Both the position numbers and the translations under genes were made by a program. From IMG/VR virus record IMGVR_UViG_3300011008_000004, positions 64,001 through 128,000 of that record: a stretch of 64,000 nt of DNA. The stretch is one strand, 5' to 3'. Source of the stretch: a virus. Taxonomy: Duplodnaviria; Caudoviricetes. Of this stretch, positions 1,673 through 47,347 are shown piece by piece (position 1 is the first letter of the stretch; the number at the start of each line of letters is the position of its first letter). Under the pieces are notes generated by a model that was given only the letters and a program-made list of their open reading frames with translations, was not told the origin of the DNA and did no database searches.

Positions 1673-1690
1673 TCAAATTGACTGACTCTT
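1661..1690 (-). terminator. intrinsic terminator
   Basis: AAGAGTCA...TGACTCTT stem followed by T-run. Confidence 0.7.
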
Positions 1691-2607
1691 ATCTGAATAA
1701 TTTTTATTTAAATAATTATCCACTTGTCTAGAAACTAATGCTCCAGAACTTTCTGCTACTATAACTTGTCGCATTGCTTCTCTCATGCAATCTCCAGCAG
1801 CATATATTCCTGAAAATGTATTTATAGCTCCTATATAACCGTTACTGTCTAAATCTACTACATCTTTAAATGGTTCATTATTAGGAACTAAACCAATTGC
1901 TAAAAATACACCATCTAATTCTAATGTATATGTTACTCCTTCTTTAAAGTAATCTATACCTACTAAATTGTTGTCATCGTCTATGCGATAGCTTTGAACT
2001 TTGGCGCTGGTAATAATCTCTATATTAGCTTTAGCATATATATTTTCTTGTAATTTTTGTTCCCCAGTTAATATCGCTAAATCTTGAACAACATAAACTT
2101 TTTAGCGATATTAGATAGTTCTAACGCTTCTTGTAAAGCAGAATTCCCACCACCAATAACCGCTACAACTTTATCTCTATAAAAAGCTCCATCACACATT
2201 ACGCAGAAAGATATGCCTTTTCCAATTAAGTCTTCTTCATTAGGTAAACCTAATAATCTATGCTTAGTTCCACTAGCAATTATAACTGATTTAGCATAAT
2301 ATTCATCACCAAAAGCAGTTGTTATAATTTTAGTACGACCTTTACGATCTACTTTAACTACTTCATCATATATAACGTTTATATTATTGTATTCTAGTTG
2401 TTCCAATAATTTAAATCCATATTCTTCACCAGATATAGAATTAAAACCAGGAATATTTTCAACTTTAGGTGAATTTAATATTTGCCCACCTACAGCTGTT
2501 TTCTCAAACATTATAACATTTTTATTAGCTCTATTAAGATATATCGCAGCAGAACAGCCGGCTGGTCCTGCGCCTATAATAGCGCAATCAAAAATAATTT
2601 TATCCAT
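1673..2607 (-). pseudogene. trxB: thioredoxin reductase, frameshifted at ~2099-2103
   Basis: GAGPAG, CVMCDG, GGGNSA motifs; C-terminal half (KVYVVQDL...GIYAAGDC...RQVIVA) continues in the -1 frame after GCT AAA AAG; one extra A restores a 311 aa TrxB. Confidence 0.85.
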
Positions 2608-3059
2608 TACTCACCTTTTCTAAATCTATAAGTTATATCTTGTTTATTAGGTTTCATTTTATACATTACTTGATTAGTTGTTATCTTATTTAATGGACCT
2701 TTATCCTCTTGATAACTTCCAACTTTATAATAATCTAAATGTTTAGATAACTCTTCATCGAAAATATCATCGCCACTATACATTGCAACTAATAAATTTT
2801 TAGAATGAATGTAATCTGCTAGTGCAATTATTTCTTGATGTCTATTATCTCCGCCCATAAAACATATACAACTTATATGCTTATTTTTAACTATAAGTTT
2901 ATCTATCTCATTACAAGTTAGTTCAACACCTATATCTTCTCTCAAATGTGGAGAATGACAATTTTTACATAAGTGTGGACATCCTGAGATCTCAAGTGCC
3001 AGACTTATTTCATCTGGCACTTCTTGAAAAACTATAGAATAATCTACGTATTTAATCAT
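2607..3059 (-). CDS. nrdG: anaerobic ribonucleotide reductase activase (radical SAM)
   Basis: FQEVPDEISLA...CPHLCKNCHS CxxxCxxC motif, next to nrdD. Confidence 0.93.
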   Translation of the reverse strand: MIKYVDYSIVFQEVPDEISLALEISGCPHLCKNCHSPHLREDIGVELTCNEIDKLIVKNKHISCICFMGGDNRHQEIIALADYIHSKNLLVAMYSGDDIFDEELSKHLDYYKVGSYQEDKGPLNKITTNQVMYKMKPNKQDITYRFRKGE

Positions 3060-4141
3060 TTTATTGTATCTTCTTTAGCGTAATAACGCTTAATAGCTTC
3101 AGCTTTTCTAACATCACTAAAATTAGATATTCTTTTTAAATAACCAATAATTCTTGTAGCTTTATCAATATTTGTAGATCCACATTTTGGACAATGATCT
3201 AAATTATCTTTGGTTATATGACCACATTCATTACATATTGTATTTGGAATATTAAATGTGCCATAACTACAACCAGCATCAATCCAAATATCCATTAACT
3301 TTCTATATTGTGATTTGCTTAAATGTGAATCTAAGTTACAATGATAGGCACTTCCGCCATCTAAGTTTCCGATAAAATCTTTTCCTTGTAGGTAAGATTT
3401 TTCAATTGGATCATATGTAGGATCTTCAACAGGATAAAAATAAGAATTATATAGATTTCTAGTTTTAGGAACTACATACCCATCACGTTTATCCCAAGCG
3501 TATAGTTTAGCTCCTGCATTCTCTGCAGGCACAAACTCTGTGTTATATTTCAAATGTTCGGAATGATGAATTGTATTCAAGTTCTTAATTGTAGTTAAAA
3601 TATCATAAGCAAATTGCTTATACGCTTTATTATCGGATTTAATCGCAATATCCTTGTATTCATCAGGTACAAATTCATTCATACTTGCTAAAAATTCTGC
3701 GCCCTCAATAAAACCATTTATACCTACTGTTAAAAATTGCTTATCCAAATCGATGAATCCAGCGTTATAAACTGTAAGTAAATTAGCGTTATACATATCC
3801 CATAAGTGATCATTCCAAGCTTCTAAATACTTATGAACTCTATCAACTATATCTGTAATATACTCAGATAAAGTCTTCCTATTTCTTTTGTATTTCTTAT
3901 TTACTTCTTCATTAAACCAATTTTGAACAATTCTATTTATATTCAAAGTAATAACTTTCTTAGATCCAGTTTCTACACCGCCAGCCCCTAATGTATAACT
4001 AAATACATTTTCTTCAATTGCATTTTTCAACCTGCAATTATGAGTTAGTATATCATTAGCATAAAACCAATGATTCTTTTGTAATTCAATATCATATACT
4101 TCTTTAGTTGTAGCTTCTACTGTTACTGATCTTATTTTCAT
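3056..4141 (-). CDS. nrdD: split-intein C fragment (35 aa) fused to NrdD C-terminal half
   Basis: Start MKIRSV after GAGGA SD; VYDIE...FYANDILTHN/C intein blocks F-G; then CRLKN, PAEN, Zn site CNECG..CPKCG, glycyl-radical RIIGYL. Confidence 0.93.
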   Translation of the reverse strand: MKIRSVTVEATTKEVYDIELQKNHWFYANDILTHNCRLKNAIEENVFSYTLGAGGVETGSKKVITLNINRIVQNWFNEEVNKKYKRNRKTLSEYITDIVDRVHKYLEAWNDHLWDMYNANLLTVYNAGFIDLDKQFLTVGINGFIEGAEFLASMNEFVPDEYKDIAIKSDNKAYKQFAYDILTTIKNLNTIHHSEHLKYNTEFVPAENAGAKLYAWDKRDGYVVPKTRNLYNSYFYPVEDPTYDPIEKSYLQGKDFIGNLDGGSAYHCNLDSHLSKSQYRKLMDIWIDAGCSYGTFNIPNTICNECGHITKDNLDHCPKCGSTNIDKATRIIGYLKRISNFSDVRKAEAIKRYYAKEDTIK

Positions 4142-4158: not shown

Positions 4159-5448
4159 TTAACATTCATGTATATGTATTCGCTCATGATGCTCATAATC
4201 AATACAAATTTTTCTTAAAATATTGCTATTATTATAATCTTTCCTTCTACACCAACATATATCTAACTAATCAGTATATAATAGCTAATGCGCAAATTCA
4301 TATAAATCTTTATTGCTAATTTCTTTTATATTTAATATTTTACAAAAAGATTTATAGTCTAATACATGTAAAATTAAACCTAAATTATGCATACTACTAC
4401 ATATTTCTTTGTATTTGTCAGCATCATAGCGCTATAAACTAGACTTTATCTCATAAAACTCATTATTTACTTTAAAATCAGGTAGATAAGAATATTTATT
4501 GCAATTAATTAAATTTATAGTTTCTGCTTCATATAAATAATCAATATTATTTAAATATAATGTGGCAGCTACCTTAAATTCTTCAAAACTTCTACAGTAT
4601 TTATGCAAACCTATATTTGGACATTTAAATTTTATACCATAAGAAGTAAGCTTAAATGTGCCGTCATATGCATATGCAGACTATCTTTCTGCTTGAAATT
4701 TACTTAATCTCTATCGTGCTTCAGGCGTTGAAGCAGGATTATTTTCGTGCCAGATTTGACGCTATAATTCACGAAGTTCTCTGCCTCTATCAGTGTCACT
4801 GTAAAATTTTTTCTTATTTTGTGATAAATTCTATTTATGCTTTTCTGTAAAAATATTCTTAACATTAACATCTAGATTGTAAGTCTTACAGTAATTTTCC
4901 CATGATATATTATGTGATCTTACAACATGATCTTTAATAGCTACACGATATTTACCACATATTTCACATTTAAATGGCTTATCAATATCATTTTCATCTT
5001 TATGTAATATAACATTGTGTTTCTATTTCAAATGTTTACAATATTCATTTTTATACTTAAACTCTTTTCCGCATATCTCACATCTGTAATAACCTATCTT
5101 TTTCTTAAGTTTAACAGATATAGGATATTCAGGATATTCTAATTTGTAATCGTTTATATCAACATAGCCATGTTGTTCACGTAAATGTCTAAGTAAAGAT
5201 ATCGCTTTTTTACCGCATATAGGACATATTACATATTCAGCATTGCGAGCTTGCTCATACTTATCTAATACATCTATGCATTCTTCATAGATATCTAAGT
5301 GATATTTATGAAGATGATGTTTTAAAGATTGCTGTGTAAAACTCTCTTTATAATGTTTACCGCATATAGGACATAGCTAATTGCCTACCTAATTCTTGCC
5401 TTCAAACTTTTTATAAATTAGATTGTATTTCTACTGAGTTGTTAACAT
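4159..5448 (-). CDS. TAG-recoded endonuclease: four C2H2-type zinc fingers plus PD-(D/E)XK domain (putative free-standing homing endonuclease)
   Basis: Manual translation: 429 codons open with 11 in-frame TAG, GAGGT SD, TAA stop; CPICGK..H..H, YRCEICGK, KPFKCEICGK, then RSFEE...YLPDF...YEIK. Confidence 0.85.
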
Positions 5449-5599
5449 TTATACTATCTACCTCATTTAAATATTTGGTGATAATATAACGAATTTCAGC
5501 CGTTTCATTTCTAAAATCTTTTTCAGCTTCTATTTGTAATCTTTTATAAATAGACTCCGGGAGAGCGATTGTTTTTATAATTGTTTTTTCTTTTTCCAT
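5411..5599 (-). CDS. ribbon-helix-helix (Arc/CopG-like) DNA-binding protein
   Basis: KTIALPESIYKRLQIEAEKDFRNETAEIRYII pattern; preceded by GCTAAATTA motif. Confidence 0.7.
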   Translation of the reverse strand: MEKEKTIIKTIALPESIYKRLQIEAEKDFRNETAEIRYIITKYLNEVDSINVNNSVEIQSNL

Positions 5600-5641
5600 A
5601 CTATCACCATTATCTAATTTAGCTAGTAAATTTAATTATTT

Positions 5642-6934
5642 TTAATCTTTTTTAATCAATTCATATCTTTCAAAGTTGTTAACTAAATCTTTTGCTTTAA
5701 TTTCTACTTTGTCACCAGATACATTATCAACTACAAGAAGCACATGTTCAGGAGTAACTTCTAAAACACTACCATCTTCTGATTCTATCTTAATTAAATT
5801 AGGATACTCATTGTCTTTTATAAGTACACCAGTGATATCAGAATATTCTATCATATCTTTTTCAATATTATATGACATTGTTTCATAATCACTATAATCT
5901 TTACTGTGATTTATACAGAAAGTGCTAATTGGCATAGTAATAATTTTTAAAGATGTCTTATGTCTGATCGTTATCAACTCATTTCCCTTAAAACAACAGC
6001 TAGCTAATGCATCAGCTGAATCTGAATTATATAAAAAGAATGAATGACCTTTGGACCACATTTCAGCAGTGAAATCAGCCATTTCTTCATCTACATATTT
6101 ATGTGTATCTTTGTCCCATAGCAAATTCATTGTCTCAACAGGAAATGTGATAACATCATGGGTTCTTTCATTATTAAACCAATTCATAAACATTTTCTGT
6201 AATTCTTTTGTAGATTCCCAATTAGGTTCATCACCATCTGGGAATATAAAATCTTTAAATATTGAATTAAAATATCCCTTATCAAAATAAGCAATATTAG
6301 TAAATGGTGATTGATAACCTCTAGCGCCTGCAGGTTGATTTATACAGTAAACAAATTGTTGAAATAAATCTTCAATTTTATTTCTTAAAGTAGCTCTTCT
6401 ATTGCCAAAAGCTTCTACAGTTTCATCTAAATTTGTTATATAATCTTCACCGTAATCTACTCTTAAAAAGTGATCTAAATAAGGTAAAAATTCTGGAACA
6501 GCGACAGCCCCTGCAAATTGACCTGCTATTAAAAATACTAAATTTGTTAAACCACCTATAAATGAATCTGAATGTTTAGGCGGGCCACTTGTTCCGCCTA
6601 ACTTCTTTAAGCCATCTAATAAAAATGGATATAATGAAATAGCTACACAATATGGCATAATTGAACTCTCATCATGTGAATATATGATGTGATTTTTTAA
6701 ATCTAAATCAAACTGATCACACAACTCTTGGCCATATTTAATCAATAAATATTTCTTTGTTATAGCACGATTTACGTCTATAAAATCAGGCTTAGATAAT
6801 TCTGAAGACATTGTTGCTACATTCTTAGTAGTTACATTAGCATTAGCATCTACTTCAGAACCGGATGCAGCGTTACACGCTTGTTTATAATTCTCAATAA
6901 ATTTAAGTTTCTTATTTAAAGTCCTTTCATCCAT
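5642..6934 (-). CDS. nrdD: NrdD N-terminal half fused to split-intein N fragment (117 aa, from 5995)
   Basis: NAASGSEVDANANV, YSHDE, PYCVAIS, GARGYQSPFTN; ends ALASC/CFKGNE (block A) ...VTPEH (block B), then TAA. Confidence 0.93.
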   Translation of the reverse strand: MDERTLNKKLKFIENYKQACNAASGSEVDANANVTTKNVATMSSELSKPDFIDVNRAITKKYLLIKYGQELCDQFDLDLKNHIIYSHDESSIMPYCVAISLYPFLLDGLKKLGGTSGPPKHSDSFIGGLTNLVFLIAGQFAGAVAVPEFLPYLDHFLRVDYGEDYITNLDETVEAFGNRRATLRNKIEDLFQQFVYCINQPAGARGYQSPFTNIAYFDKGYFNSIFKDFIFPDGDEPNWESTKELQKMFMNWFNNERTHDVITFPVETMNLLWDKDTHKYVDEEMADFTAEMWSKGHSFFLYNSDSADALASCCFKGNELITIRHKTSLKIITMPISTFCINHSKDYSDYETMSYNIEKDMIEYSDITGVLIKDNEYPNLIKIESEDGSVLEVTPEHVLLVVDNVSGDKVEIKAKDLVNNFERYELIKKD

Positions 6935-7400: not shown

Positions 7401-8783
7401 TTATACTTTATTGATTATACAGAAGTCTAAGTCCTTCATTCAGAATATTTATTGCCGCATTCTGATCTCTATTATGATGTGTTCCGCAATCTGGACAAGT
7501 CCATTCTCTTATAGAAAGAGAATTTACAATATCTTTGTGATAACAACCACATTCAGAACAAACAATGGTTGTAGGAGTAAATCTTCCTATTTTAACTAAT
7601 TGTTTTCCTTGAGATTCTAATTTCTGTTGAAGTCTTGTTCTAAAATAACCAAAAGCATTATCCATAGTTGATTTTCCTAGTCTTAGTGCTTGAGATTGAG
7701 CTTTCATATCAATATCTTCAATACAAATTATATCATATTTCTCTGCAAGTTTCTTAGATTCTTTTTCAATGAAATCTTTTCTTTGATTAGTTATTTGTTC
7801 ATGAATTTTTGCAACTTTAATCTTTTGTTTTTCATAGTTATTTGAGTACAATTTCATATGAGATAACTTACGTTGTTCTTTAGCTAATTTTGGTTGAGAT
7901 TTCTTGAATAATTTTACAAACCCCTCAGGTTTATTGTTTTGGCTATCAACATAAAACTCTGGAGCGCTGTAATCTAATCCAACTGCTTTATTTTTGTCTA
8001 ATTTTATTTCAGGTATTTCATACTCATATTCAGCAAGAATACTTATGAAATATTTACCTGAGTTTGTTTGAGAAATGGTTGCTGATTTTATAATGTAATC
8101 TTGCGGAATGAATCTATGTTCAACAAATTTAATAGGTCCAAGTTTGGGAAGCTGGATTCTATTATTAGAGATAATTCTTATTGAATTGTTTACACAATTA
8201 GTAGTATAAGATTTTTTATCAAATTTTTTCGATTTGAATTTAGGAAATCCATTTTTAATATTTCTAAAGAAATTATTATAAGCTGTTTGTAAATGCATTT
8301 GCTCATTAGCTAAAGCTAAAGAATCAACTTCTTTTAACCAATCGAATTCTTCTTTGTATTGAGCAGGTGTGTTTTTGAGATTAACCTTATCTTTCTTATA
8401 AGCCTCAATTTTATCAGCTAACATCTTATTGTAGATAAATCTACAGCAGCCAAATGTTTTTTGTAGTAATATTTCTTGCTCTTTATTTGGATACAGGCGA
8501 TATTTGAAACATTTATTCATGAACAACTTCCTTACTAAAATAAAAATAGCTTATTTGATTGGCGGATCAAATAAGCTATAATTACTCTATATCAAACTAT
8601 TGCTAGTTTAATAACATTATAATATACAATATTGATTCCGCCAAATCAACAATAATCATTTCTGATTACAGATAATTTAGCTAATAAAATACATAGAAAA
8701 ATACCGAAATTCAAAGAATATTTCAAATCATCTAAAGCAATTCATCCGATGACTGAAGTCAAAGGATTTCCTGCTGAGTTAGG
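7300..8783 (-). mobile_element. IS200/IS605-family (IS1341-like, tnpB-only) element
   Basis: tnpB; subterminal hairpins at both ends; right end ...GTAGTTCAC; left flank TTTAA (candidate TAM); boundaries inferred. Confidence 0.8.
7408..8526 (-). CDS. tnpB: RNA-guided endonuclease TnpB
   Basis: FKYRLYPNKEQ HTH_OrfB start; RuvC D (GLDY), E (IEDI), D (RDQNAA) intact; CSECG/CPDCG zinc ribbon. Confidence 0.95.
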   Translation of the reverse strand: MFMNKCFKYRLYPNKEQEILLQKTFGCCRFIYNKMLADKIEAYKKDKVNLKNTPAQYKEEFDWLKEVDSLALANEQMHLQTAYNNFFRNIKNGFPKFKSKKFDKKSYTTNCVNNSIRIISNNRIQLPKLGPIKFVEHRFIPQDYIIKSATISQTNSGKYFISILAEYEYEIPEIKLDKNKAVGLDYSAPEFYVDSQNNKPEGFVKLFKKSQPKLAKEQRKLSHMKLYSNNYEKQKIKVAKIHEQITNQRKDFIEKESKKLAEKYDIICIEDIDMKAQSQALRLGKSTMDNAFGYFRTRLQQKLESQGKQLVKIGRFTPTTIVCSECGCYHKDIVNSLSIREWTCPDCGTHHNRDQNAAINILNEGLRLLYNQ

Positions 8784-12080: not shown

Positions 12081-13181
12081 TTAATTCATTTTTCTTAAGT
12101 AATCACATATAAAATTATGTATATCACCATTCATAACTGCTTGAATATCGCTAGTCTCAAATCCTGTTCTATGATCTTTCACTAGTGTGTAAGGACAGAA
12201 AACATATGATCTTATTTGACTGCCCCATTCAATTTTCTTTATAGGACCTTTTAAATTTTGAACTTCTTGTAATCGTTCTTCCTCTTTCCTTTCTGCTAGT
12301 AAATTTCTAAGCATACACATTGCTTTTTCTTTATTTTGCAACTGACTTCTTTCTTCCTGACATTCAGTCACTATGCCTGTAGGTTTGTGTAAAATTCTAA
12401 CTTTACTTTCAGTTTTATTTACGTTCTGTCCACCAGCTCCAGATGATCTACAAGTTGTAATTTCTATATCTTCTGGCCTTATAATCATATCACTATCATC
12501 TTCAAGTTCAGGCATAACATCTACTGAAGCAAATGACGTGTGTCTTCTTCCACCAGCATCAAATGGAGATATTCTAACTAATCTATGAATACCCTTTTCA
12601 GCTTTTAAATAGCCATAAGCATTTGTGCCTATAATTCTAAATGATACAGATTTTAGTCCTGCAACTCCATCAGCTAGTCTATCTATTTCTTCTAGTTTAA
12701 AATCTTGTTTTTGACAGTAGCACATATACATTCTATAAAGCATCTCAGTCCAATCACAAGCCTCTGTACCACCTTCTCCTGAATGTAATGTTACTATAGC
12801 ATTTAAGCTGTCATACTTGCCATTTAATAGTGTCTCTAAATGCAATGTATCTACTGCTTTTTCTGACTCTTCAAGCATCTTAGTTATTTCACTTATTATA
12901 TCATCATCTTCAACAATCTCTAGCATTTGAAGTAAATCTATGACCTCAAATAAGGTCTTATGAATACTTTCATAACGATCTACAAGACTTTTTAAATTTG
13001 ATAACTTCTTAGAAATTTCAACTGACTTGGAAGCATCAGACCATACTGCCGGACTTTCTAATCGTTGACAGTACAATTCTATATTATGACGCATATTATT
13101 AAGCTTTTCTTCACTAATAGAGCTATTTAATAAGTCTATAGCCTCATTAGCTCTTTGCTTTAATTCATCAGTTACTAACAT
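12081..13181 (-). CDS. prfB: peptide chain release factor 2
   Basis: [19 protein letters not shown] (SPF peptide anticodon), [17 protein letters not shown]. Confidence 0.96.
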
Positions 13182-40211: not shown

Positions 40212-40814
40212 TTACTTTATAACTTCATAAACATCTTCATCTGCATAGGCTTCAAACCACTTATGCGCATAACTCCCTTCATATACTACGGCTCTTAAAC
40301 TAGTTACATCTTCAAAAGCATCACCGTCTATAAACTTAACACTTCTAGGAATAGCTATTTTATCACCAAGATCACAATAAGCAAATGCGCCTTGTTCTAT
40401 ACGCTCTACACCTTCATCTATAATAATGGTTTTTAACGATTCACATCCACTAAAAGCATAAGACCCGATAATTTTCACAGTGCCAGGTATATGTACTTTT
40501 TCTAAGTTTTCACACATCCAAAAACAACCCCAACCTATCTCAGTTATGTTTTCAGGAAATGTTCCTACCTCACCTAGCATCTTATCATTGTAATAATAGT
40601 ATTGAGGTAACGATGTTATATGAGACATTACATCTATATCTGCTTTATTTAATATATTCACCAATGCTTGCATAAAGTGTGCCTGCATTTCTTCATCAAC
40701 TTCATCAGTAAATGATACAACATTTTCAAATAGTTTATCGAAATTATTAGCGTTTAAAGCTTTTATATTTTCTTCATCACTTAAAAATTTATCAACTATA
40801 TCATATATAATCAT
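40212..40814 (-). CDS. BspA-type leucine-rich repeat protein
   Basis: IPGTVKIIGSYAFSGCESL repeats. Confidence 0.88.
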   Translation of the reverse strand: MIIYDIVDKFLSDEENIKALNANNFDKLFENVVSFTDEVDEEMQAHFMQALVNILNKADIDVMSHITSLPQYYYYNDKMLGEVGTFPENITEIGWGCFWMCENLEKVHIPGTVKIIGSYAFSGCESLKTIIIDEGVERIEQGAFAYCDLGDKIAIPRSVKFIDGDAFEDVTSLRAVVYEGSYAHKWFEAYADEDVYEVIK

Positions 40815-41428
40815 ACTTCAAAATTCCCATCAGAGCAATGTATCGTAATTTTGTGTGACTTACCTGTAAACATAGTACCAGATCTAAATAATCTTTCACA
40901 AGAATTGATAGTATTTTGTACATAAATATCTTTTAAATTATCGCAACCGTCAAATACATCACGTCCAATATATAATGAACCTTTACCAAAATATACACTA
41001 TTTAAATGAACACAGCGAGCGAATACACCTCTATACAAACCTAGTAAATTATCATCAAAATGTACTGTTCGTATATTATTACAACTAGAAAAAGCATAAT
41101 TCTCTATGTACTATAATTGACTGTCTTCTTCAAATCTAATATCTACAAACTTGCCTTTAGAAAAAGCCAAAGGACCGATATATCTTACTTTATTAGGAAT
41201 AAACAGATGATCAATAGATGTATCTTCCATATATTTTCCAGGAATTTCAAGTAAATTATTTAATGGATTTAACCCAGCTTTTACTAATATTTCATTTATA
41301 TAAGAACCAGGTATCTACAAAGCCTATGCTTTATTAAATAAGTCTAAGAAATTACTATCATTTATTAGTGTTATATTAGCATTATCATTTAAAAAATCTT
41401 CTATCTTATAGCTTAATCTACTATCCAT
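40811..41428 (-). CDS. BspA-type LRR protein (TAG-recoded)
   Basis: In frame with 40811..41038 through at least 3 TAG; IPNKVRYIGPLAF repeats; follows GCTAAATTA. Confidence 0.75.
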
Positions 41429-41487: not shown

Positions 41488-41973
41488 TTATTCAACAGTC
41501 TCTATCTTTTTCATATAGTCAAATATAATCTAATAATCTGACGTTAAAAATACTTTTTTAGCTTCTGATGGCACTTCAAAAACTTTAAACTATTCATCAT
41601 TAACCATTTTTACATTTATAGATTTATAACCAGATTCTTTAAGTCTTTTAACTTCTTCAATAGGAATAAAACACACTTTCTTATGATCTATAAACCATAG
41701 TACAACAAATGCACCGTAGCCTTTAGGTCCAATAGAATGAATCAAATCTTCATACTATCTTAATTTTGCAAAGTTAAAAGTATTTCCTTCTACACTCTTA
41801 CACTCAATAGCCAAACCATATGGGTATTTATATACTAAGTAATCAGCTAATTGCGCAGATGAATGGCCATAACCATTTGTCAAGTCTCTTAATCTATAGA
41901 CGAATATGTCACCTAATCTTAAAAAATCTGCTTTCACCTATTGTTCAAATTCTTTTCCACGATTTGCGGCCAT
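41488..41973 (-). CDS. RecU-like resolvase (4 TAG)
   Basis: MAANRGKEFE, ADYL...IECKS; ends TAA inside terminator hairpin 41473-41503. Confidence 0.8.
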
Positions 41974-43179: not shown

Positions 43180-44055
43180 TTACACTTCGTCTCTTAATAG
43201 ATCATACGTTCCATCACAAAACTTATCTAAAATTTCATCACTAAATTCTTCATGTTCTGCTTTAACTTCTGCTATTGCTTGTTCTCTAGTTTTACCGTCT
43301 TTTTCAATAGCTGTTGAAATATACTCTTGAATTTCATTCAACATTTCATCCGCATACCATCTCTTTAAGATATATGGATCTGTAACAAATGGAACGTCGA
43401 CCTCAGGCTTAGCTGCATTAGACATTAAATAAGCCAATCTTTCAGAAACTTTTTCAGCGTTTTCTACAGGACATTCTCCTAATAATTCATCATGCACAGG
43501 AATTAGTAATTTATAACCAAGATCATTTATTTCTTTATCTTTAAAAATATTAACCATCGCTTTCTTAGTTAAAGATGCTGCACTTCCTTGAATTCTAGCA
43601 TTCGTACATTGTGTCATTGTTTTTGAAATAAATGCGCCATTATCTAAAACGTCAACTCCATTTTCTTTAGCTAATTCTTTAAACTTAGTTTTAGTCTTAA
43701 AACCTTTACCAGCATAGTTAGTATTATATTCATTAGTCCATCTAGCTGTAGCTTCTTTATCTTCAACTTCTAAAAATACATCTTTAGCTTGACAATCTAA
43801 AAACAGATCACAATTAGTACTCACTTTCTTTTTAGCTGTTACTTTAACTTCCGGTAAATTTGCATCAGGTAAGTGTCTACGTCTACCCATATAATCTTCA
43901 ACATAACCTTGTTCTTTAGCAGCTATAGCATTGCCATCTGTAAATTCTTTTATTTTAGGAAACTTTTCATAAAAATTTTTAAGTATTTCTTGGCATTCTT
44001 CATATGAAACCTTTAATTGTTGTGACATAAGATTAGCGCCCATGCCATACATAAT
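43180..44055 (-). CDS. polA: family A DNA polymerase, final exon (motif B end, motif C)
   Basis: IMYGMG, GYVEDYMGRRRHLP, NARIQGSAA, LIPVHDELL. Confidence 0.93.
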   Translation of the reverse strand: MMYGMGANLMSQQLKVSYEECQEILKNFYEKFPKIKEFTDGNAIAAKEQGYVEDYMGRRRHLPDANLPEVKVTAKKKVSTNCDLFLDCQAKDVFLEVEDKEATARWTNEYNTNYAGKGFKTKTKFKELAKENGVDVLDNGAFISKTMTQCTNARIQGSAASLTKKAMVNIFKDKEINDLGYKLLIPVHDELLGECPVENAEKVSERLAYLMSNAAKPEVDVPFVTDPYILKRWYADEMLNEIQEYISTAIEKDGKTREQAIAEVKAEHEEFSDEILDKFCDGTYDLLRDEV

Positions 44056-45245
44056 CGTTTTATTTTAATATTTCTATTAAACCAGACTATCTCATAATCC
44101 TATATTTAGGATTTTACGCACTTCGATTAGTAACAATCTCTAATCTACACACATGTCTGTGTTAGTCGTTACACTTTATCTATGAATTTCCACTTAAAAC
44201 CATAAGCGTGTTTTGCTTTACCTTTACACACAGCTGATATAGCTTTAGCTGATGCTAAGCTAACAGCTATCTTATGTTCAACCAAATATTTAGAAGCCTA
44301 TGTCATAGATTTAAATGTCATTAAAATCTAATTATTTGATCTATCAATCATTGCAACTGATTTACTATTCTTATCTGAAATAATATCTCTAGTATGCTAA
44401 GAATGATGTTTATTAAAGAATGAATTGCGTTCACCCACACGTTGTGAAGCTAATATGCTTAACTTTTCATTCTTTACGCCACTATTCAATCTAGATCTAG
44501 ATCTATTAGTACACTTCTTTAATCCCTTATTAGGCGAAATTCTTCCTTTCAATTTGTTAGATATTTCTAAATTAGATTCATACTAATGATCTAAATTAGC
44601 CTAAAATTGTTTACTACATTCATATGCTTTCTAATATAATTCTAAATCAATATCATCTATATTAAAATCTTGTAAAGACTTACCATGTAATATATAGCGT
44701 ATAGATAAAATATTTTTAGATATATCATCATTAGATTTACTACATAATGCTAAAAAATAATGTGATTTTATATGATCTTTATATAATAAATTCACTAAAT
44801 TATTTTCAGAATTGTCTACATCTAAATTATTAGATATGAAATAATATTTGGGAATTATGTGATGCTAGTTATGTCTATAAGATTCATAATTAGTATCAAT
44901 GTTACTAATAATTAAATTTACATATTCATTTAAGTATTCATTATCAATAAATATATTAGTTTGCAATAATTTGTGTTTTAAGATATCAAAATTTATGTTA
45001 TTCATACACTCTCCTGTATAATTTAGCTAGGTATTGTGTATGTTAACATACATAAATCTTAGCACGGTATTATCTGCTATCCAATCGCTGGACCGTAGAA
45101 TCTCTTACGAAGCTTATTCGCACAAAGTCTTAGTTCACTTCTACCGTTAGCAACTATCACTAGTTACACCTCTTTGTAATCAGAGTTCACGTAATTATTC
45201 GATACACATCACTGTGTAAAGGGGCATTATATAACCTTTCAGTCT
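44056..45245 (-). ncRNA. group I intron in polymerase motif B
   Basis: 5' exon ends GGU, intron ends G; IGS AUAAUGCCC pairs with both exons; R-like GUGUAACGACUA and S-like GAUAGUCU; splicing restores KTLMLG-IMYGMG. Confidence 0.9.
44169..45005 (-). CDS. intron-encoded HNH homing endonuclease with NUMOD3/NUMOD1 (7 TAG)
   Basis: QHHIIP...DNSENNLVNL...H...H; GERNSFFNKHHS; HAYGFKWKF; AGGAG SD; own GCTAAATTA motif. Confidence 0.88.
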
Positions 45246-45511
45246 ACCCAACATTAAAGTTTTACCCTTTTTTCTTAATTGTTTTCCTGCAAAGTTAGGA
45301 GAACCATCTTCCCAATGTTCCATACATTCCCAATAATCTTTATGGACTGCTGGTGCATATATAGTTGCATATGGGTCACGTTTCTCTTCAAATGTTCTTC
45401 TCAATTCTGGATCTTGAGAAAGATGAGTGAATAACCGTGGTTCTTGCGCTGACTTCAGGAAAAGTCTCCTCCCACAATTGAATAATTAATTCGTGTTCTT
45501 AGACTTCTCAT
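45246..45511 (-). CDS. polA: family A DNA polymerase, second cistron first exon (motif A interrupted by 8-nt insert at ~45450-45457)
   Basis: Strong SD AAAGGAGGTGA; MRSLRTRINYSIVGGDFS-TGA-AG-SAQEPRLFTHLSQD...RKKGKTLMLG. Confidence 0.85.
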
Positions 45512-45632
45512 TAGCATCACCTCCTTTAGTACCCTCTTGGCACCATCTAATATTTTAATATCTACAAAATGAATACTCACTTTATAGGTAATTCTACTAA
45601 ATTGTATATATTTTCTTATCTTTCTTTAAATT

Positions 45633-45794
45633 TTATACCTTTTGTTTATACGTAAGCAAAGCTTTTACAGATTCTTCATTATATCTATATTTACCATTTA
45701 TATTAGAATCTATTTTTATCAAACCTTGTTTTACATACTTATACAATGTAGGCTTGCTTATCTTCAACAAATTCATCACTTCTTTTGCTTTCAT
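45633..45794 (-). CDS. 53 aa MerR/HTH_17-type DNA-binding protein (like the IS607 TnpA N-terminus)
   Basis: MKAKEVMNLLKISKPTLYKYVKQGLI; ATG overlaps the polA-N TGA. Confidence 0.75.
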   Translation of the reverse strand: MKAKEVMNLLKISKPTLYKYVKQGLIKIDSNINGKYRYNEESVKALLTYKQKV

Positions 45795-47347
45795 GCTACG
45801 TCCTCTAAGGTTAATTTTATTTTATTTTCTAAAACTTCTACTTTAGTTACCTTATAAAACTCATCATCACTTCCAGTGATAATATCATTTTCTTTTATAT
45901 CTTTTATTCTAACCCATTTATTGTTACACATTACATCTACATAATCATTTAAAATTATTTCATTAGAATCTTCTATATTCTCATCTTTATATTCCGTAGA
46001 TGCTTTAAACATCATTCTCATTGAAGTTTCATGTGAAGGAATCTGTTGTAGATTTGGATTAGTTGAACTAAATCTCCCTGTTCTTACGTTATTATCTTCT
46101 GCACCCATTTGATTAAAGTTAGCATGAAGTTTGCCATCTTTTTCAGAAATACAATTTGGAAGAGATTTAGTAAATGTTTTCATTAAAATACTAAAGTGTC
46201 TATAATCTAATAACGCTTTTGTAAATGGGTGATCTATCGCTTTTAACGCTGCTTTATCAGTAGACTTATTTTCATCTAATGGTTTTATCTTTAATATATC
46301 ATATAAAACTATTTTAAGTTGAACTGGACTTTCATAATTTATTGGATCATCTAATTGTCCTAATGATCTATAACTATCTAACTCTTTCTTATATGGGGCT
46401 AATATTTCATTCATCTTATTAGATGCTTTTTCTAAACCTTTAGTATACTTATCATCTAAACGTTTAACATAATCTACGTCAAGACAAATTCCATCATCTT
46501 CCATTTTAGATGTTACTAAAACTATTGGGACTTCTACTTCACTAAATAACTTGTATAATTTTTCACAGCCCTTCTGCTTAAATAACTCTTCTTGATATTG
46601 TTGTAATTTATAAGTATCAAAAGCATCAATAGCTGCATATAATGCAAATATTTCAGGATCGACCCAAGCATAAGGTAAACCAGTAAATAATTTTTCAATA
46701 TTGTATGAACCAATTGTAGGATCTATATGGGTTTTATATTGAAACTTCAATTTAGCTTGTTCATTTTCATTCATCATTTGAGCTGCTATCATTGTGTCCC
46801 ACCATATTGGAAGATATACACCCATAGTGTTAAAACAAACTCGTATATCAAATTTCCCATTATGATATATCATTTTAGTATTATTATCTTTTAATTTTTG
46901 AAATACTTCCTTTACGCACTCATCTGATACTTGATCTTTTAATCTTTCGTCTGTTCCAGGAACACAGTGATTCATTGGAACATATACTGGTTTTGTATTT
47001 GGAAGATACATACACAAACCCATTAACTTACAAGTTAGTGGATCCAAACTATTATTAGTTTCTGTATCGAATGACAAATAATCTACTGCAATGGCTCTAT
47101 CTATATACTCTCGTAATTCATCATCAGTCCTTATAACCTTAACAAAGTTTTTATATCTTCCTAAAATTTTATAAACTTCTTTTGAGATATAATCGAGTCT
47201 ATCTTCTAGTGGCATACTAGAGATAGACTCTTTCTTTTTAACAGCATGAGTTTTGCCAAGTTTTATAAGTTGAAGACGAATAGCGTCATTATTTATAACA
47301 GGAACTTCAAAATCATCTAGCAATGAAGCTTTTCTAAATTCCGCCAT
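45791..47347 (-). CDS. polA: family A DNA polymerase, first cistron (3'-5' exonuclease, thumb, start of palm) with Hint-like tail
   Basis: FDTET, HNGKFD, YAAID, RTGRFSSTNPNLQQIP, RMMFKAS then ~68 aa KWVRIKDIKENDII tail and TGA. Confidence 0.93.
   Translation of the reverse strand: MAEFRKASLLDDFEVPVINNDAIRLQLIKLGKTHAVKKKESISSMPLEDRLDYISKEVYKILGRYKNFVKVIRTDDELREYIDRAIAVDYLSFDTETNNSLDPLTCKLMGLCMYLPNTKPVYVPMNHCVPGTDERLKDQVSDECVKEVFQKLKDNNTKMIYHNGKFDIRVCFNTMGVYLPIWWDTMIAAQMMNENEQAKLKFQYKTHIDPTIGSYNIEKLFTGLPYAWVDPEIFALYAAIDAFDTYKLQQYQEELFKQKGCEKLYKLFSEVEVPIVLVTSKMEDDGICLDVDYVKRLDDKYTKGLEKASNKMNEILAPYKKELDSYRSLGQLDDPINYESPVQLKIVLYDILKIKPLDENKSTDKAALKAIDHPFTKALLDYRHFSILMKTFTKSLPNCISEKDGKLHANFNQMGAEDNNVRTGRFSSTNPNLQQIPSHETSMRMMFKASTEYKDENIEDSNEIILNDYVDVMCNNKWVRIKDIKENDIITGSDDEFYKVTKVEVLENKIKLTLEDVA

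Follow-up and report, generated by a model that had tools for sequence, protein, structure and literature searches.

What is encoded between the two halves of a broken ribonucleotide reductase gene in a phage genome, at a place where the standard genetic code yields almost nothing? The question is raised by a 64,000-nt stretch of a Caudoviricetes genome of gut-metagenome origin (IMG/VR record IMGVR_UViG_3300011008_000004), here called the window, which comprises bases 64001-128000 of a 214,257-bp contig with a GC content of 29.7%, a 99-bp end overlap and nearly all of its genes on the minus strand. Two halves of nrdD, the gene for the class III (anaerobic) ribonucleotide reductase, flank a segment (4159-5599) in which the standard code gives only short open reading frames (ORFs), fragments of 55-58 amino acids (aa). 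The best explanation, to which we assign a probability of roughly 0.78, is that nrdD is fractured by a split intein and that the segment between the intein halves carries a homing endonuclease, built of zinc fingers and a PD-(D/E)XK nuclease domain and gated by in-frame TAG codons.

The original prediction, made from the bare sequence, was of a hidden frame of 429 codons with 11 TAG, three of them among the first 24 codons, which encodes four CxxC..H..H fingers (one carrying KPFKCEICGK) followed by the motifs RSFEE, YLPDF and YEIK, lies between the halves of a split intein, overlaps a small ribbon-helix-helix (RHH)-like ORF and follows a GCTAAATTA motif. Each of these elements was found: the frame at 4159-5448 on the minus strand, every named motif in its translation, the 38-nt overlap, the upstream GCTAAATTA and, on either side, the NrdD-N/IntN and IntC/NrdD-C junctions (IntN and IntC being the N- and C-terminal intein fragments).

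4159..5448, minus strand: proposed free-standing homing endonuclease gene, 429 codons with 11 in-frame TAG, ending in a TAA stop at 4159-4161

Read as glutamine, the TAG codons correspond to Q6, Q20, Q24, Q142, Q206, Q229, Q246, Q256, Q339, Q388 and Q394 of the 429-aa frame, which contains no TAA, no TGA and no frameshift. Structure prediction, proposed earlier as a check, gave an AlphaFold2 model with a mean predicted local distance difference test (pLDDT) score of 90, in which four beta-beta-alpha fingers are followed by a helical linker (residues 183-261) and a C-terminal alpha/beta domain. That the frame is more than a chance occurrence follows from its 181 database matches and from the conservation of metal ligands and catalytic residues on both sides of the TAG codons.

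Several features of the genome bear on how TAG is read. Its predicted genes contain 264 in-frame TAG and terminate in TAA (188) or TGA (79), never in TAG. Two tRNA-CUA genes are present (genome positions 2606-2680 and 163136-163233), the second being 98 nt long with a long insertion or variable arm, and both begin with UGGG and end in CCCA-N-CCA. The window also encodes a class I release factor of the RF2 type (12081-13181, minus strand; SPF at residue 205, GGQ at residue 250), itself free of TAG, and a phage RF2 would fit a TAG-specific recoding. The homologues were inspected for residues other than Gln, or true stops, at the TAG positions: over the 8 TAG columns that could be aligned with 77 homologues, Gln was favoured by +9.1 bits, mostly from two columns, with Lys the next best at a log-odds of +0.3, and the column of TAG229 held Gln in 55 of the 77. 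The original prediction thereby passed the refutation test that it had set itself. Comparison of the suppressor tRNAs with the phage's own tRNA-Gln(UUG) was uninformative (about 56% similar); their UGGG...CCCA acceptor stems resemble those of bacterial tRNA-Gln. Taken from the sequence, TAG is a sense codon, most likely for Gln, and the evidence supports a gene that would be translatable only with amber suppression.

The translated protein divides into the following modules, the fingers being numbered 0 to 3.

5299..5373, minus strand: finger 0, residues 26-50, CPIC..HHLHKYH (alignment A1; pLDDT 65-72)
5170..5226, minus strand: finger 1, residues 75-93, C-x2-C-x9-H-x4-H (ROS_MUCR, E = 1.9e-5, just below the cut-off; beta-beta-alpha in the model)
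5017..5082, minus strand: finger 2, residues 123-144, classical C-x2-C-x12-H-x4-H (zf-C2H2_4, 3.8e-5, and zf-C2H2, 2e-3, both below the cut-off)
4912..4968, minus strand: finger 3, residues 161-179, KPFKCEICGK (157-166)...H-x4-H (alignments A1 and A2; AlphaFold2 model)
4666..4902, minus strand: conserved helical linker, residues 183-261, with W183, LSxNKKxFY, G222 and NNP (alignments and AlphaFold2 model)
4162..4665, minus strand: PD-(D/E)XK domain, residues 262-429, T7 endonuclease I / TnsA-like (profile, Pfam matches of relatives, AlphaFold2)

The candidate zinc ligands of finger 1 (C75/C78..H88/H93) were invariant in A1 and conserved to at least 90% in A2, those of finger 2 (C123/C126..H139/H144) were conserved and placed in a beta-beta-alpha unit by the model, and three of the four in finger 3 (C161/C164..H174/H179), namely C161, C164 and H174, were invariant in 78 sequences. 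Finger 0 (C26/C29..H44-H50) was found in some homologues only and was modelled with lower confidence; three fingers are invariant in the family, and the window copy has four. Successive fingers are separated by 29-48 residues, x12/x4 spacing occurs in finger 2 only (fingers 1 and 3 are x9/x4), no canonical TGEKP-linked tandem array is present, and the only linker-like stretch among the fingers is DKPFKC before finger 3. The term C2H2-type fingers is justified by these features; canonical tandem array is not. The comparison with zinc-finger nucleases drawn in the original prediction thus holds in part: fingers are indeed joined to a PD-(D/E)XK nuclease, but their separation and the confinement of x12 spacing to finger 2 depart from that model. 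The helical linker possibly binds DNA, and among six family members it gave no credible Pfam match to NUMOD3 or another known DNA-binding family.

The C-terminal domain carries RSFEE (286-290), YLPDF (321-325) and YEIK (332-335), with R286, S287, E290, E307, D324, E333, K335 and K345 as key residues. A profile of this region (A3) searched against PDB matched T7 endonuclease I (1m0d, E=3.8e-9), with the RS..E, YE, PDF and ExK elements aligned and with E290, D324, E333 and K335 on the corresponding motifs of the solved structure. Phage_endo_I (PF05367) was detected in 16 of 78 relatives and TnsA-like_N (PF08722) in 10 of 78. Modelled alone, the domain reached a pLDDT of 95 and its structural neighbours were all PD-(D/E)XK proteins (VRR-NUC, Z 6.9; I-Bth0305I, Z 6.6; TnsA, Z 6.2 over 125 residues), while Foldseek searches of PDB with the full-length and nuclease models returned nothing at E<=1e-3, only weak rows for C2H2 arrays and for TnsA, Vsr and I-Bth0305I. 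The family consensus (RSFxEF...YE...PDF...ExK) lacks the Vsr-like EDxHD motif and a conserved catalytic His. Judged by sequence and model, the case is supported for a protein that joins C2H2-type fingers to a PD-(D/E)XK nuclease with an intact E-D-ExK set.

The gene flanking this protein on both sides has the layout of a split-intein host.

5996..6934, minus strand: nrdD N-extein, residues 1-313 of P0184, ending ...ALASC, TAG-free (Pfam NRDD, 1.9e-36; phrog_25611, 1.6e-82)
5642..5995, minus strand: IntN, 117 aa plus stop codon, starting CFKGNE, block B TPEH (Pfam Intein_splicing, 6.6e-6, below the curated cut-off)
4037..4141, minus strand: IntC, 35 aa, MKIRSV...ILTHN, likely true start at ATG 4141 (read from the sequence)
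3056..4036, minus strand: nrdD C-extein, beginning at the +1 Cys of CRLKN, TAG-free (Pfam NRDD, 7.8e-47)

The N part covers positions 37-296 of the NRDD profile and the C part positions 252-560. The junctions read ...ALASC|CFKGNE and ..ILTHN|CRLKN, so the residues characteristic of an intein (Cys1 at C314, TPEH and ILTHN|C) are in place, as they are in seven other loci, and the joined exteins (ALASC|CRLKN; in DNA ...GCTAGCTGT|TGCAGGTTG...) agree with an uninterrupted SSCCRL allele of the related phage L014. The IntC ORF in its longest form starts at 4165, and a ribosome-binding site (RBS), AGAGGAAG, lies directly after the endonuclease stop. On this sequence evidence we interpret the locus as a fractured nrdD, a split intein with a free-standing endonuclease gene between its halves, whose NrdD products are presumably trans-spliced at ...ALASC|CRL.... 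The whole window gave no Rfam match at the gathering threshold, so that a group I intron has no support here or at the split DNA polymerase gene described below. Just upstream of grx-nrdD lies a TAG-free TnpB / IS605 OrfB-like gene (7408-8526, minus strand; HTH_OrfB_IS605, OrfB_IS605 and Cas12f1-like TNB domains), and TnpB genes were also seen near nrdD in L007 and L013.

The endonuclease belongs to a family of uncultured phages. An exhaustive profile-free search returned 181 cluster representatives at E<=1e-3, 23 of them at E<=1e-30, with a best match of 41% identity across the full length. In an alignment of 78 sequences, C161, C164, H174, K212, G222, S287, E307, D324, E333 and K335 were invariant, and C75, C78, C123, C126, H139, H144, H179, W183, R286, E290 and K345 were at least 90% conserved. 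By tblastn, the endonuclease (P0001) and P0025 had no match in 50,697 GenBank phage records (INPHARED), and P0001 alone as query retrieved no related locus from IMG/VR; the search with a subgroup alignment (A4) yielded one viral and five metagenome loci. More remotely, BFVD contains proteins of similar build (Foldseek E 4e-9 to 1e-5 over 300-420 aligned columns, 11-18% identity, template modelling (TM) score about 0.2), so that the design, DNA-binding modules attached to an endonuclease-I/TnsA-like nuclease, is widespread in phages and uncharacterised.

Position bears on the function. Of the distinct homologue loci, 12 are informative, with both nrdD halves in view, and all 12 have the gene between NrdD-N and NrdD-C (L004-L009, L011, L012, L018, L019, L021 and L022; L010 and L020 repeat L008 and L018 and were not counted). 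Four more loci (L013, L017, L023 and L025), some at a contig end, are consistent, with a single half visible or identified; that of L013 was recognised from the junction motif only and the C-half of L025 from a precomputed NRDD Pfam annotation. The junction SC|CRL is identical in the window and in all seven homologue loci read at residue level, and across the eight sequenced junctions IntN measures 116-126 aa and IntC 35-43 aa, the homologous IntC fragments beginning MKIK.. and having 35-41 aa. At this shared intein site the endonucleases are only 25-50% identical, and their hosts include T4-like phages with gp23 (L008). Such a fixed location inside the nrdD split intein is expected of a cognate homing endonuclease, and the homing-type role claimed in the original prediction gains its support, at the level of sequence, from these 12 loci. 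The uninterrupted L014 allele would be a potential target.

L014 shows a further arrangement of its own (L014:3979-7994). There nrdD is intact at SCCRL, but an RHH gene and a DUF7487 PD-(D/E)XK nuclease interrupt it about 70 residues upstream. The tail of the N piece is 46-52% identical to the end of the window IntN and the next piece begins MKIKNV.., like the head of an IntC; Cys1, TxxH and HN are absent from these tails, which perhaps derive from an intein and serve for docking, with no splicing involved. The same nrdD is broken a third time further downstream.

Upstream of the endonuclease, the rest of the cassette consists of two small elements.

5411..5599, minus strand: 62-aa RHH-like ORF (P0002), sharing 38 nt with the start of the endonuclease gene (Atlas model)
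5615..5623, minus strand: GCTAAATTA, promoter-like motif 15 nt upstream of the ATG of the RHH-like ORF, followed by the RBS-like GGTGAT (motif count)

P0002 had no Pfam, NCBIfam or PHROG match, and its RHH assignment is a lead taken from an ESM Atlas model (pLDDT 0.71) that fell with RHH/Arc/CopG clusters (TM 0.73-0.80, feature score 0.92). Its homologues (60-90% identity) were confined to window-like loci, where each immediately precedes an endonuclease gene that interrupts nrdD. In L017 and L025 this gene encodes the zinc-finger enzyme, and L025 repeats the 38-nt overlap; in L014-L016 it encodes a different nuclease (DUF7487, with repeats and PDF/EIK). The GCTAAATTA motif is present in nine copies in the window (5615, 7266, 8673, 18227, 28001, 41457, 42011, 45019 and 60476), compared with 2.5 expected, all on the coding strand. 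Genome-wide the strand bias is 30 to 0, again all coding, with most copies 20-50 nt before start codons and often followed by TATA-rich sequence, and a copy also precedes the RHH homologue of L025. From this distribution GCTAAATTA is likely a phage promoter element. The putative RHH protein may regulate the cassette. The autoregulation proposed in the original prediction is so far unsupported: no conserved operator was found, and an imperfect palindrome around CTAG at 5600-5640, noted by eye, is not kept in L017 or L025.

How the TAG codons are distributed bears on whether they serve as a lock. TAG-bearing genes fill about 117-203 kb of the genome, and further TAG islands lie inside an otherwise TAG-free block of replication and nucleotide-metabolism genes (DnaB, UvsX, ligase, DNA polymerase, SbcCD, NrdDG). 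Both nrdD halves and nearly all neighbouring genes are free of TAG, whereas in the endonuclease TAG accounts for 58% of the Gln codons (2.6 per 100 codons), making it the fourth densest among genes of at least 150 aa. The second rank is held by another endonuclease (HNH/NUMOD3, 8 TAG), located between DNA polymerase halves. In the TAG-free block, GCTAAATTA preceded 6 of 12 TAG-rich genes and 10 of 138 others (p=3.6e-4, a post hoc comparison with manual choices).

Homologues extend the pattern. That of L006 contains 6 TAG next to TAG-free nrdD halves, and that of L017 (51% identity, the closest with an RHH gene) contains two in-frame TGA codons, one of which falls in the column of the near-invariant Trp183, and its neighbours are clean; in-frame stops are absent from homologues whose contexts appear to be unrecoded. 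The recoded cases (TAG in the window and L006, TGA in L017) suggest that the selfish gene acquired whichever stop its phage recodes. Within the cassette no terminator-like site was found on the minus strand, IntC has its own RBS and the first TAG falls at codon 6; early read-through could therefore give NrdD halves without nuclease. A lock that holds until TAG is decoded, and hence late-gated translation, is consistent with the TAG-free flanks and the recoded homologues.

Other TAG-rich genes were observed in the same survey. The DNA polymerase gene (43180-47347, minus strand) is present as two ORFs (45791-47347 and 43180-44052) with the HNH/NUMOD3 ORF (44169-45065) between them; GCTAAATTA at 45019-45027 followed by AGGAGAG..ATG suggests the true start of the latter, and the adjoining 45066-45790 is without an open frame and without an Rfam group I intron match. 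The replication block contains a TAG island made of a RecU-like Holliday junction resolvase (41488-41973, minus strand, 4 TAG) and a BspA-type leucine-rich repeat (LRR) protein (40811-41428, minus strand, 3 TAG), each preceded by GCTAAATTA. The densest TAG gene of the genome is a reverse transcriptase (RVT_1; genome 41491-42525, L001:492-1526) with 13 TAG in 344 codons, which adjoins TAG-rich ORFs and LRR_5 proteins in what may be a diversity-generating retroelement.

Together these observations suggest the following course of events. A mobile cassette of promoter-like motif, small RHH-like gene and free-standing homing endonuclease gene would sit between the intein halves, and the NrdD halves would be rejoined by protein trans-splicing at ...ALASC|CRL.... 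With 11 TAG in the endonuclease and none in the nrdD halves, an early read-through transcript could yield NrdD and not nuclease, which would be made only under active amber suppression, presumably late. The endonuclease would then bind and cut the intein-free nrdD of co-infecting relatives near the SCCRL-coding site, and repair of the cut allele would copy intein and cassette into it. More speculatively, the RHH protein would add transcriptional control.

A number of results weigh against this reading. The C2H2 matches (PF00096 and PF13894) remained below their gathering thresholds (24.5 against 27 and 19.0 against 25.2 bits), as did ROS_MUCR (25.2 against 25.4 bits) and the Intein_splicing matches (26.4 and 20.9 bits against a curated cut-off of 35.8); the window nuclease domain itself (P0001:262-429) matched no Pfam family at E<=0.01, its structural matches in PDB were modest (Z<=6.9; Foldseek E>0.01), and the RHH gene is missing from most loci of the family. 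T7 endonuclease I, moreover, is a structure-specific resolvase and not a sequence-specific enzyme. Given that the closest sequence relative of solved structure is a Holliday-junction resolvase, that one finger is Ros/MucR-like and that the putative RHH partner would have a typical repressor fold, the protein might instead cleave junctions or particular DNA structures, or else bind DNA as a regulator recruited to nrdD, and the main task of the RHH and zinc-finger proteins would be to control transcription of nrdD-C or of the cassette; the homing endonuclease I-TevI, for its part, doubles as an autorepressor. We regard a non-homing role as very unlikely, given that the catalytic E/D/ExK residues are invariant in 78 sequences, that all 12 informative loci have the gene in no other place than the one where endonucleases canonically insert into an intein, and in one and the same intein allele, and that the phage has a separate RecU-like resolvase (41488-41973). 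Homing endonuclease genes commonly degenerate after fixation, and the 11 interruptions under the standard code, together with a frameshifted copy on the short contig L024, could be taken for a pseudogene at the end of the homing cycle, in which the TAG codons would be true stops and nothing but the split intein would still work. Every one of the 11 interruptions is a TAG, however, without any indel and in a genome of 30% GC where TAA should dominate; every zinc ligand and catalytic residue is intact and TAG is a sense codon genome-wide. Decay was rejected on the grounds that the interruptions are TAG only and the motifs all preserved, and its chances are slight in the extreme.

Doubt of a more substantial kind concerns the lock. 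The gene and its homing role could stand as described while the TAG codons built up passively in a dispensable or late gene with its own promoter: a single transition turns CAG into TAG, the genome is AT-rich, and TAG density would then mark late expression, not cause it. Many late or accessory genes carry TAG among the 264 sites, the reverse transcriptase most densely; a copy of GCTAAATTA belongs to the cassette itself, and within the TAG-free block this motif is overrepresented ahead of TAG-rich genes; and several homologues (L004, L005, L007, L008 and L025) are without in-frame stops, so that gating is not intrinsic to the family. Set against passive accumulation are the three TAG within the first 24 codons and the share of Gln codons affected, at the top of the genome range, as well as the same enrichment in TAG- and TGA-recoded relatives whose flanking nrdD is clean; either way, no protein would be made without suppression. 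TAG enrichment as a mere consequence of late or dispensable expression could account for the pattern, and we judge it unlikely, though it deserves to be taken seriously. The fractured nrdD with a TAG-gated zinc-finger/PD-(D/E)XK homing endonuclease remains the reading that we prefer.

More tentatively, and at somewhat less than even odds, the locus may represent a natural zinc-finger nuclease family, in which modular fingers and a PD-(D/E)XK domain form a dedicated homing enzyme of the nrdD split intein, stop-codon control was gained independently in TAG- and TGA-recoded lineages, and an RHH-plus-nuclease cassette exchanges its nuclease module from site to site (the zinc-finger type in the window and in L017 and L025, the DUF7487 type in L014). 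If so, recoding would be a general way of taming selfish nucleases in early essential genes.

Elsewhere in the window, away from the cassette, a thioredoxin-reductase-like gene (2050-2610 and 1673-2101, minus strand) loses its frame by a -1 shift at GCT AAA AAG (about 2098-2106), its N half occupying 2077-2607 and its C half running on in the -1 frame to 1673. Programmed slippage on AAA AAG could explain the break, as could a homopolymer sequencing error or decay into a pseudogene.

Neither the arrangement nor the idea of gating is without precedent. Fractured genes, in which split inteins are accompanied by a free-standing endonuclease gene, were described by Dassa et al. (2009, PMC2677866); most came from phages, and many had a role in nucleotide metabolism. 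The hosts were gp41, DnaE, NrdA, NrdJ, ligase, terminase and IMPDH, with endonucleases of the GIY-YIG or Vsr-like types. The window locus shares their plan, with two host ORFs on the same strand, IntN ending the first and IntC beginning the second, and between them an endonuclease with its own control elements. It differs in its NrdD host, its zinc-finger/endonuclease-I-like enzyme, its RHH partner and its stop-codon recoding; NrdD is unmentioned in that paper (PMC2677866), where zinc appears only in the description of Vsr. A literature search of limited scope found no description of an NrdD split intein or of this endonuclease architecture. The class III ribonucleotide reductase thereby joins the hosts of fractured split-intein genes, and its eight sequenced junctions provide a set of natural allelic split inteins.

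As regards the enzyme, T7 endonuclease I (PF05367; 1m0d) and TnsA (PF08722; 1t0f) share its PD-(D/E)XK core with the E...D...ExK set, the TnsA alignment extending over 125 residues including the C-terminal subdomain, but these two proteins, a junction resolvase and a transposase subunit, have no zinc fingers. I-Ssp6803I and I-Bth0305I (EDxHD family, PMC3239194) likewise use a restriction-enzyme-fold catalytic domain for homing; the likeness is one of fold only (Z 6.6), as the window protein has the canonical E-D-ExK and not EDxHD, and its DNA-binding modules and genetic context are different. Engineered zinc-finger nucleases offer a parallel in build, with a C2H2 array N-terminal to FokI, itself a member of the PD-(D/E)XK superfamily. 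They differ from the natural protein in that the latter has gaps of 29-48 residues instead of TGEKP linkers, two x9 fingers and an additional helical linker, and modular triplet recognition by it is hypothetical. Similar overall builds occur in BFVD under the names Endonuclease (Bacillus phage SP-15), TnsA endonuclease N-terminal domain (Campylobacter phage CP20), and Zinc finger C2H2-type and Endonuclease I (uncultured Caudovirales); these proteins are remote and generically annotated, and none is tied to an nrdD intein. The combination of C2H2-type fingers with a helical linker and a nuclease like endonuclease I and TnsA would extend the short list of homing-endonuclease types by an uncharacterised architecture, and since its build parallels that of engineered zinc-finger nucleases, its recognition rules could interest genome engineers.

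For the gating, the nearest case is that of the TGA-recoded 'Agate' phages of Borges et al. (preprint, doi 10.1101/2021.08.26.457843), in which a group I intron endonuclease is loaded with recoded stops. The in-frame stops were proposed to delay endonuclease synthesis until late (doi 10.1101/2021.08.26.457843). In both systems a selfish endonuclease inside an early gene is preferentially rich in the recoded stop. Theirs, however, is encoded by a group I intron with TGA read as Trp, whereas the window combines a free-standing split-intein endonuclease with TAG read as Gln, and a single family displays both recodings (TAG in the window and L006, TGA in L017). The novelty, as far as could be checked, lies in how the endonuclease is built, in NrdD as the host, in the cassette that pairs RHH and nuclease genes, and in the convergence of TAG and TGA within one family. 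A family whose in-frame stops are TAG in some phages, TGA in another and absent from the rest, inside a host gene that stays clean, offers a comparative test of recoding as an expression timer for harmful or late functions.

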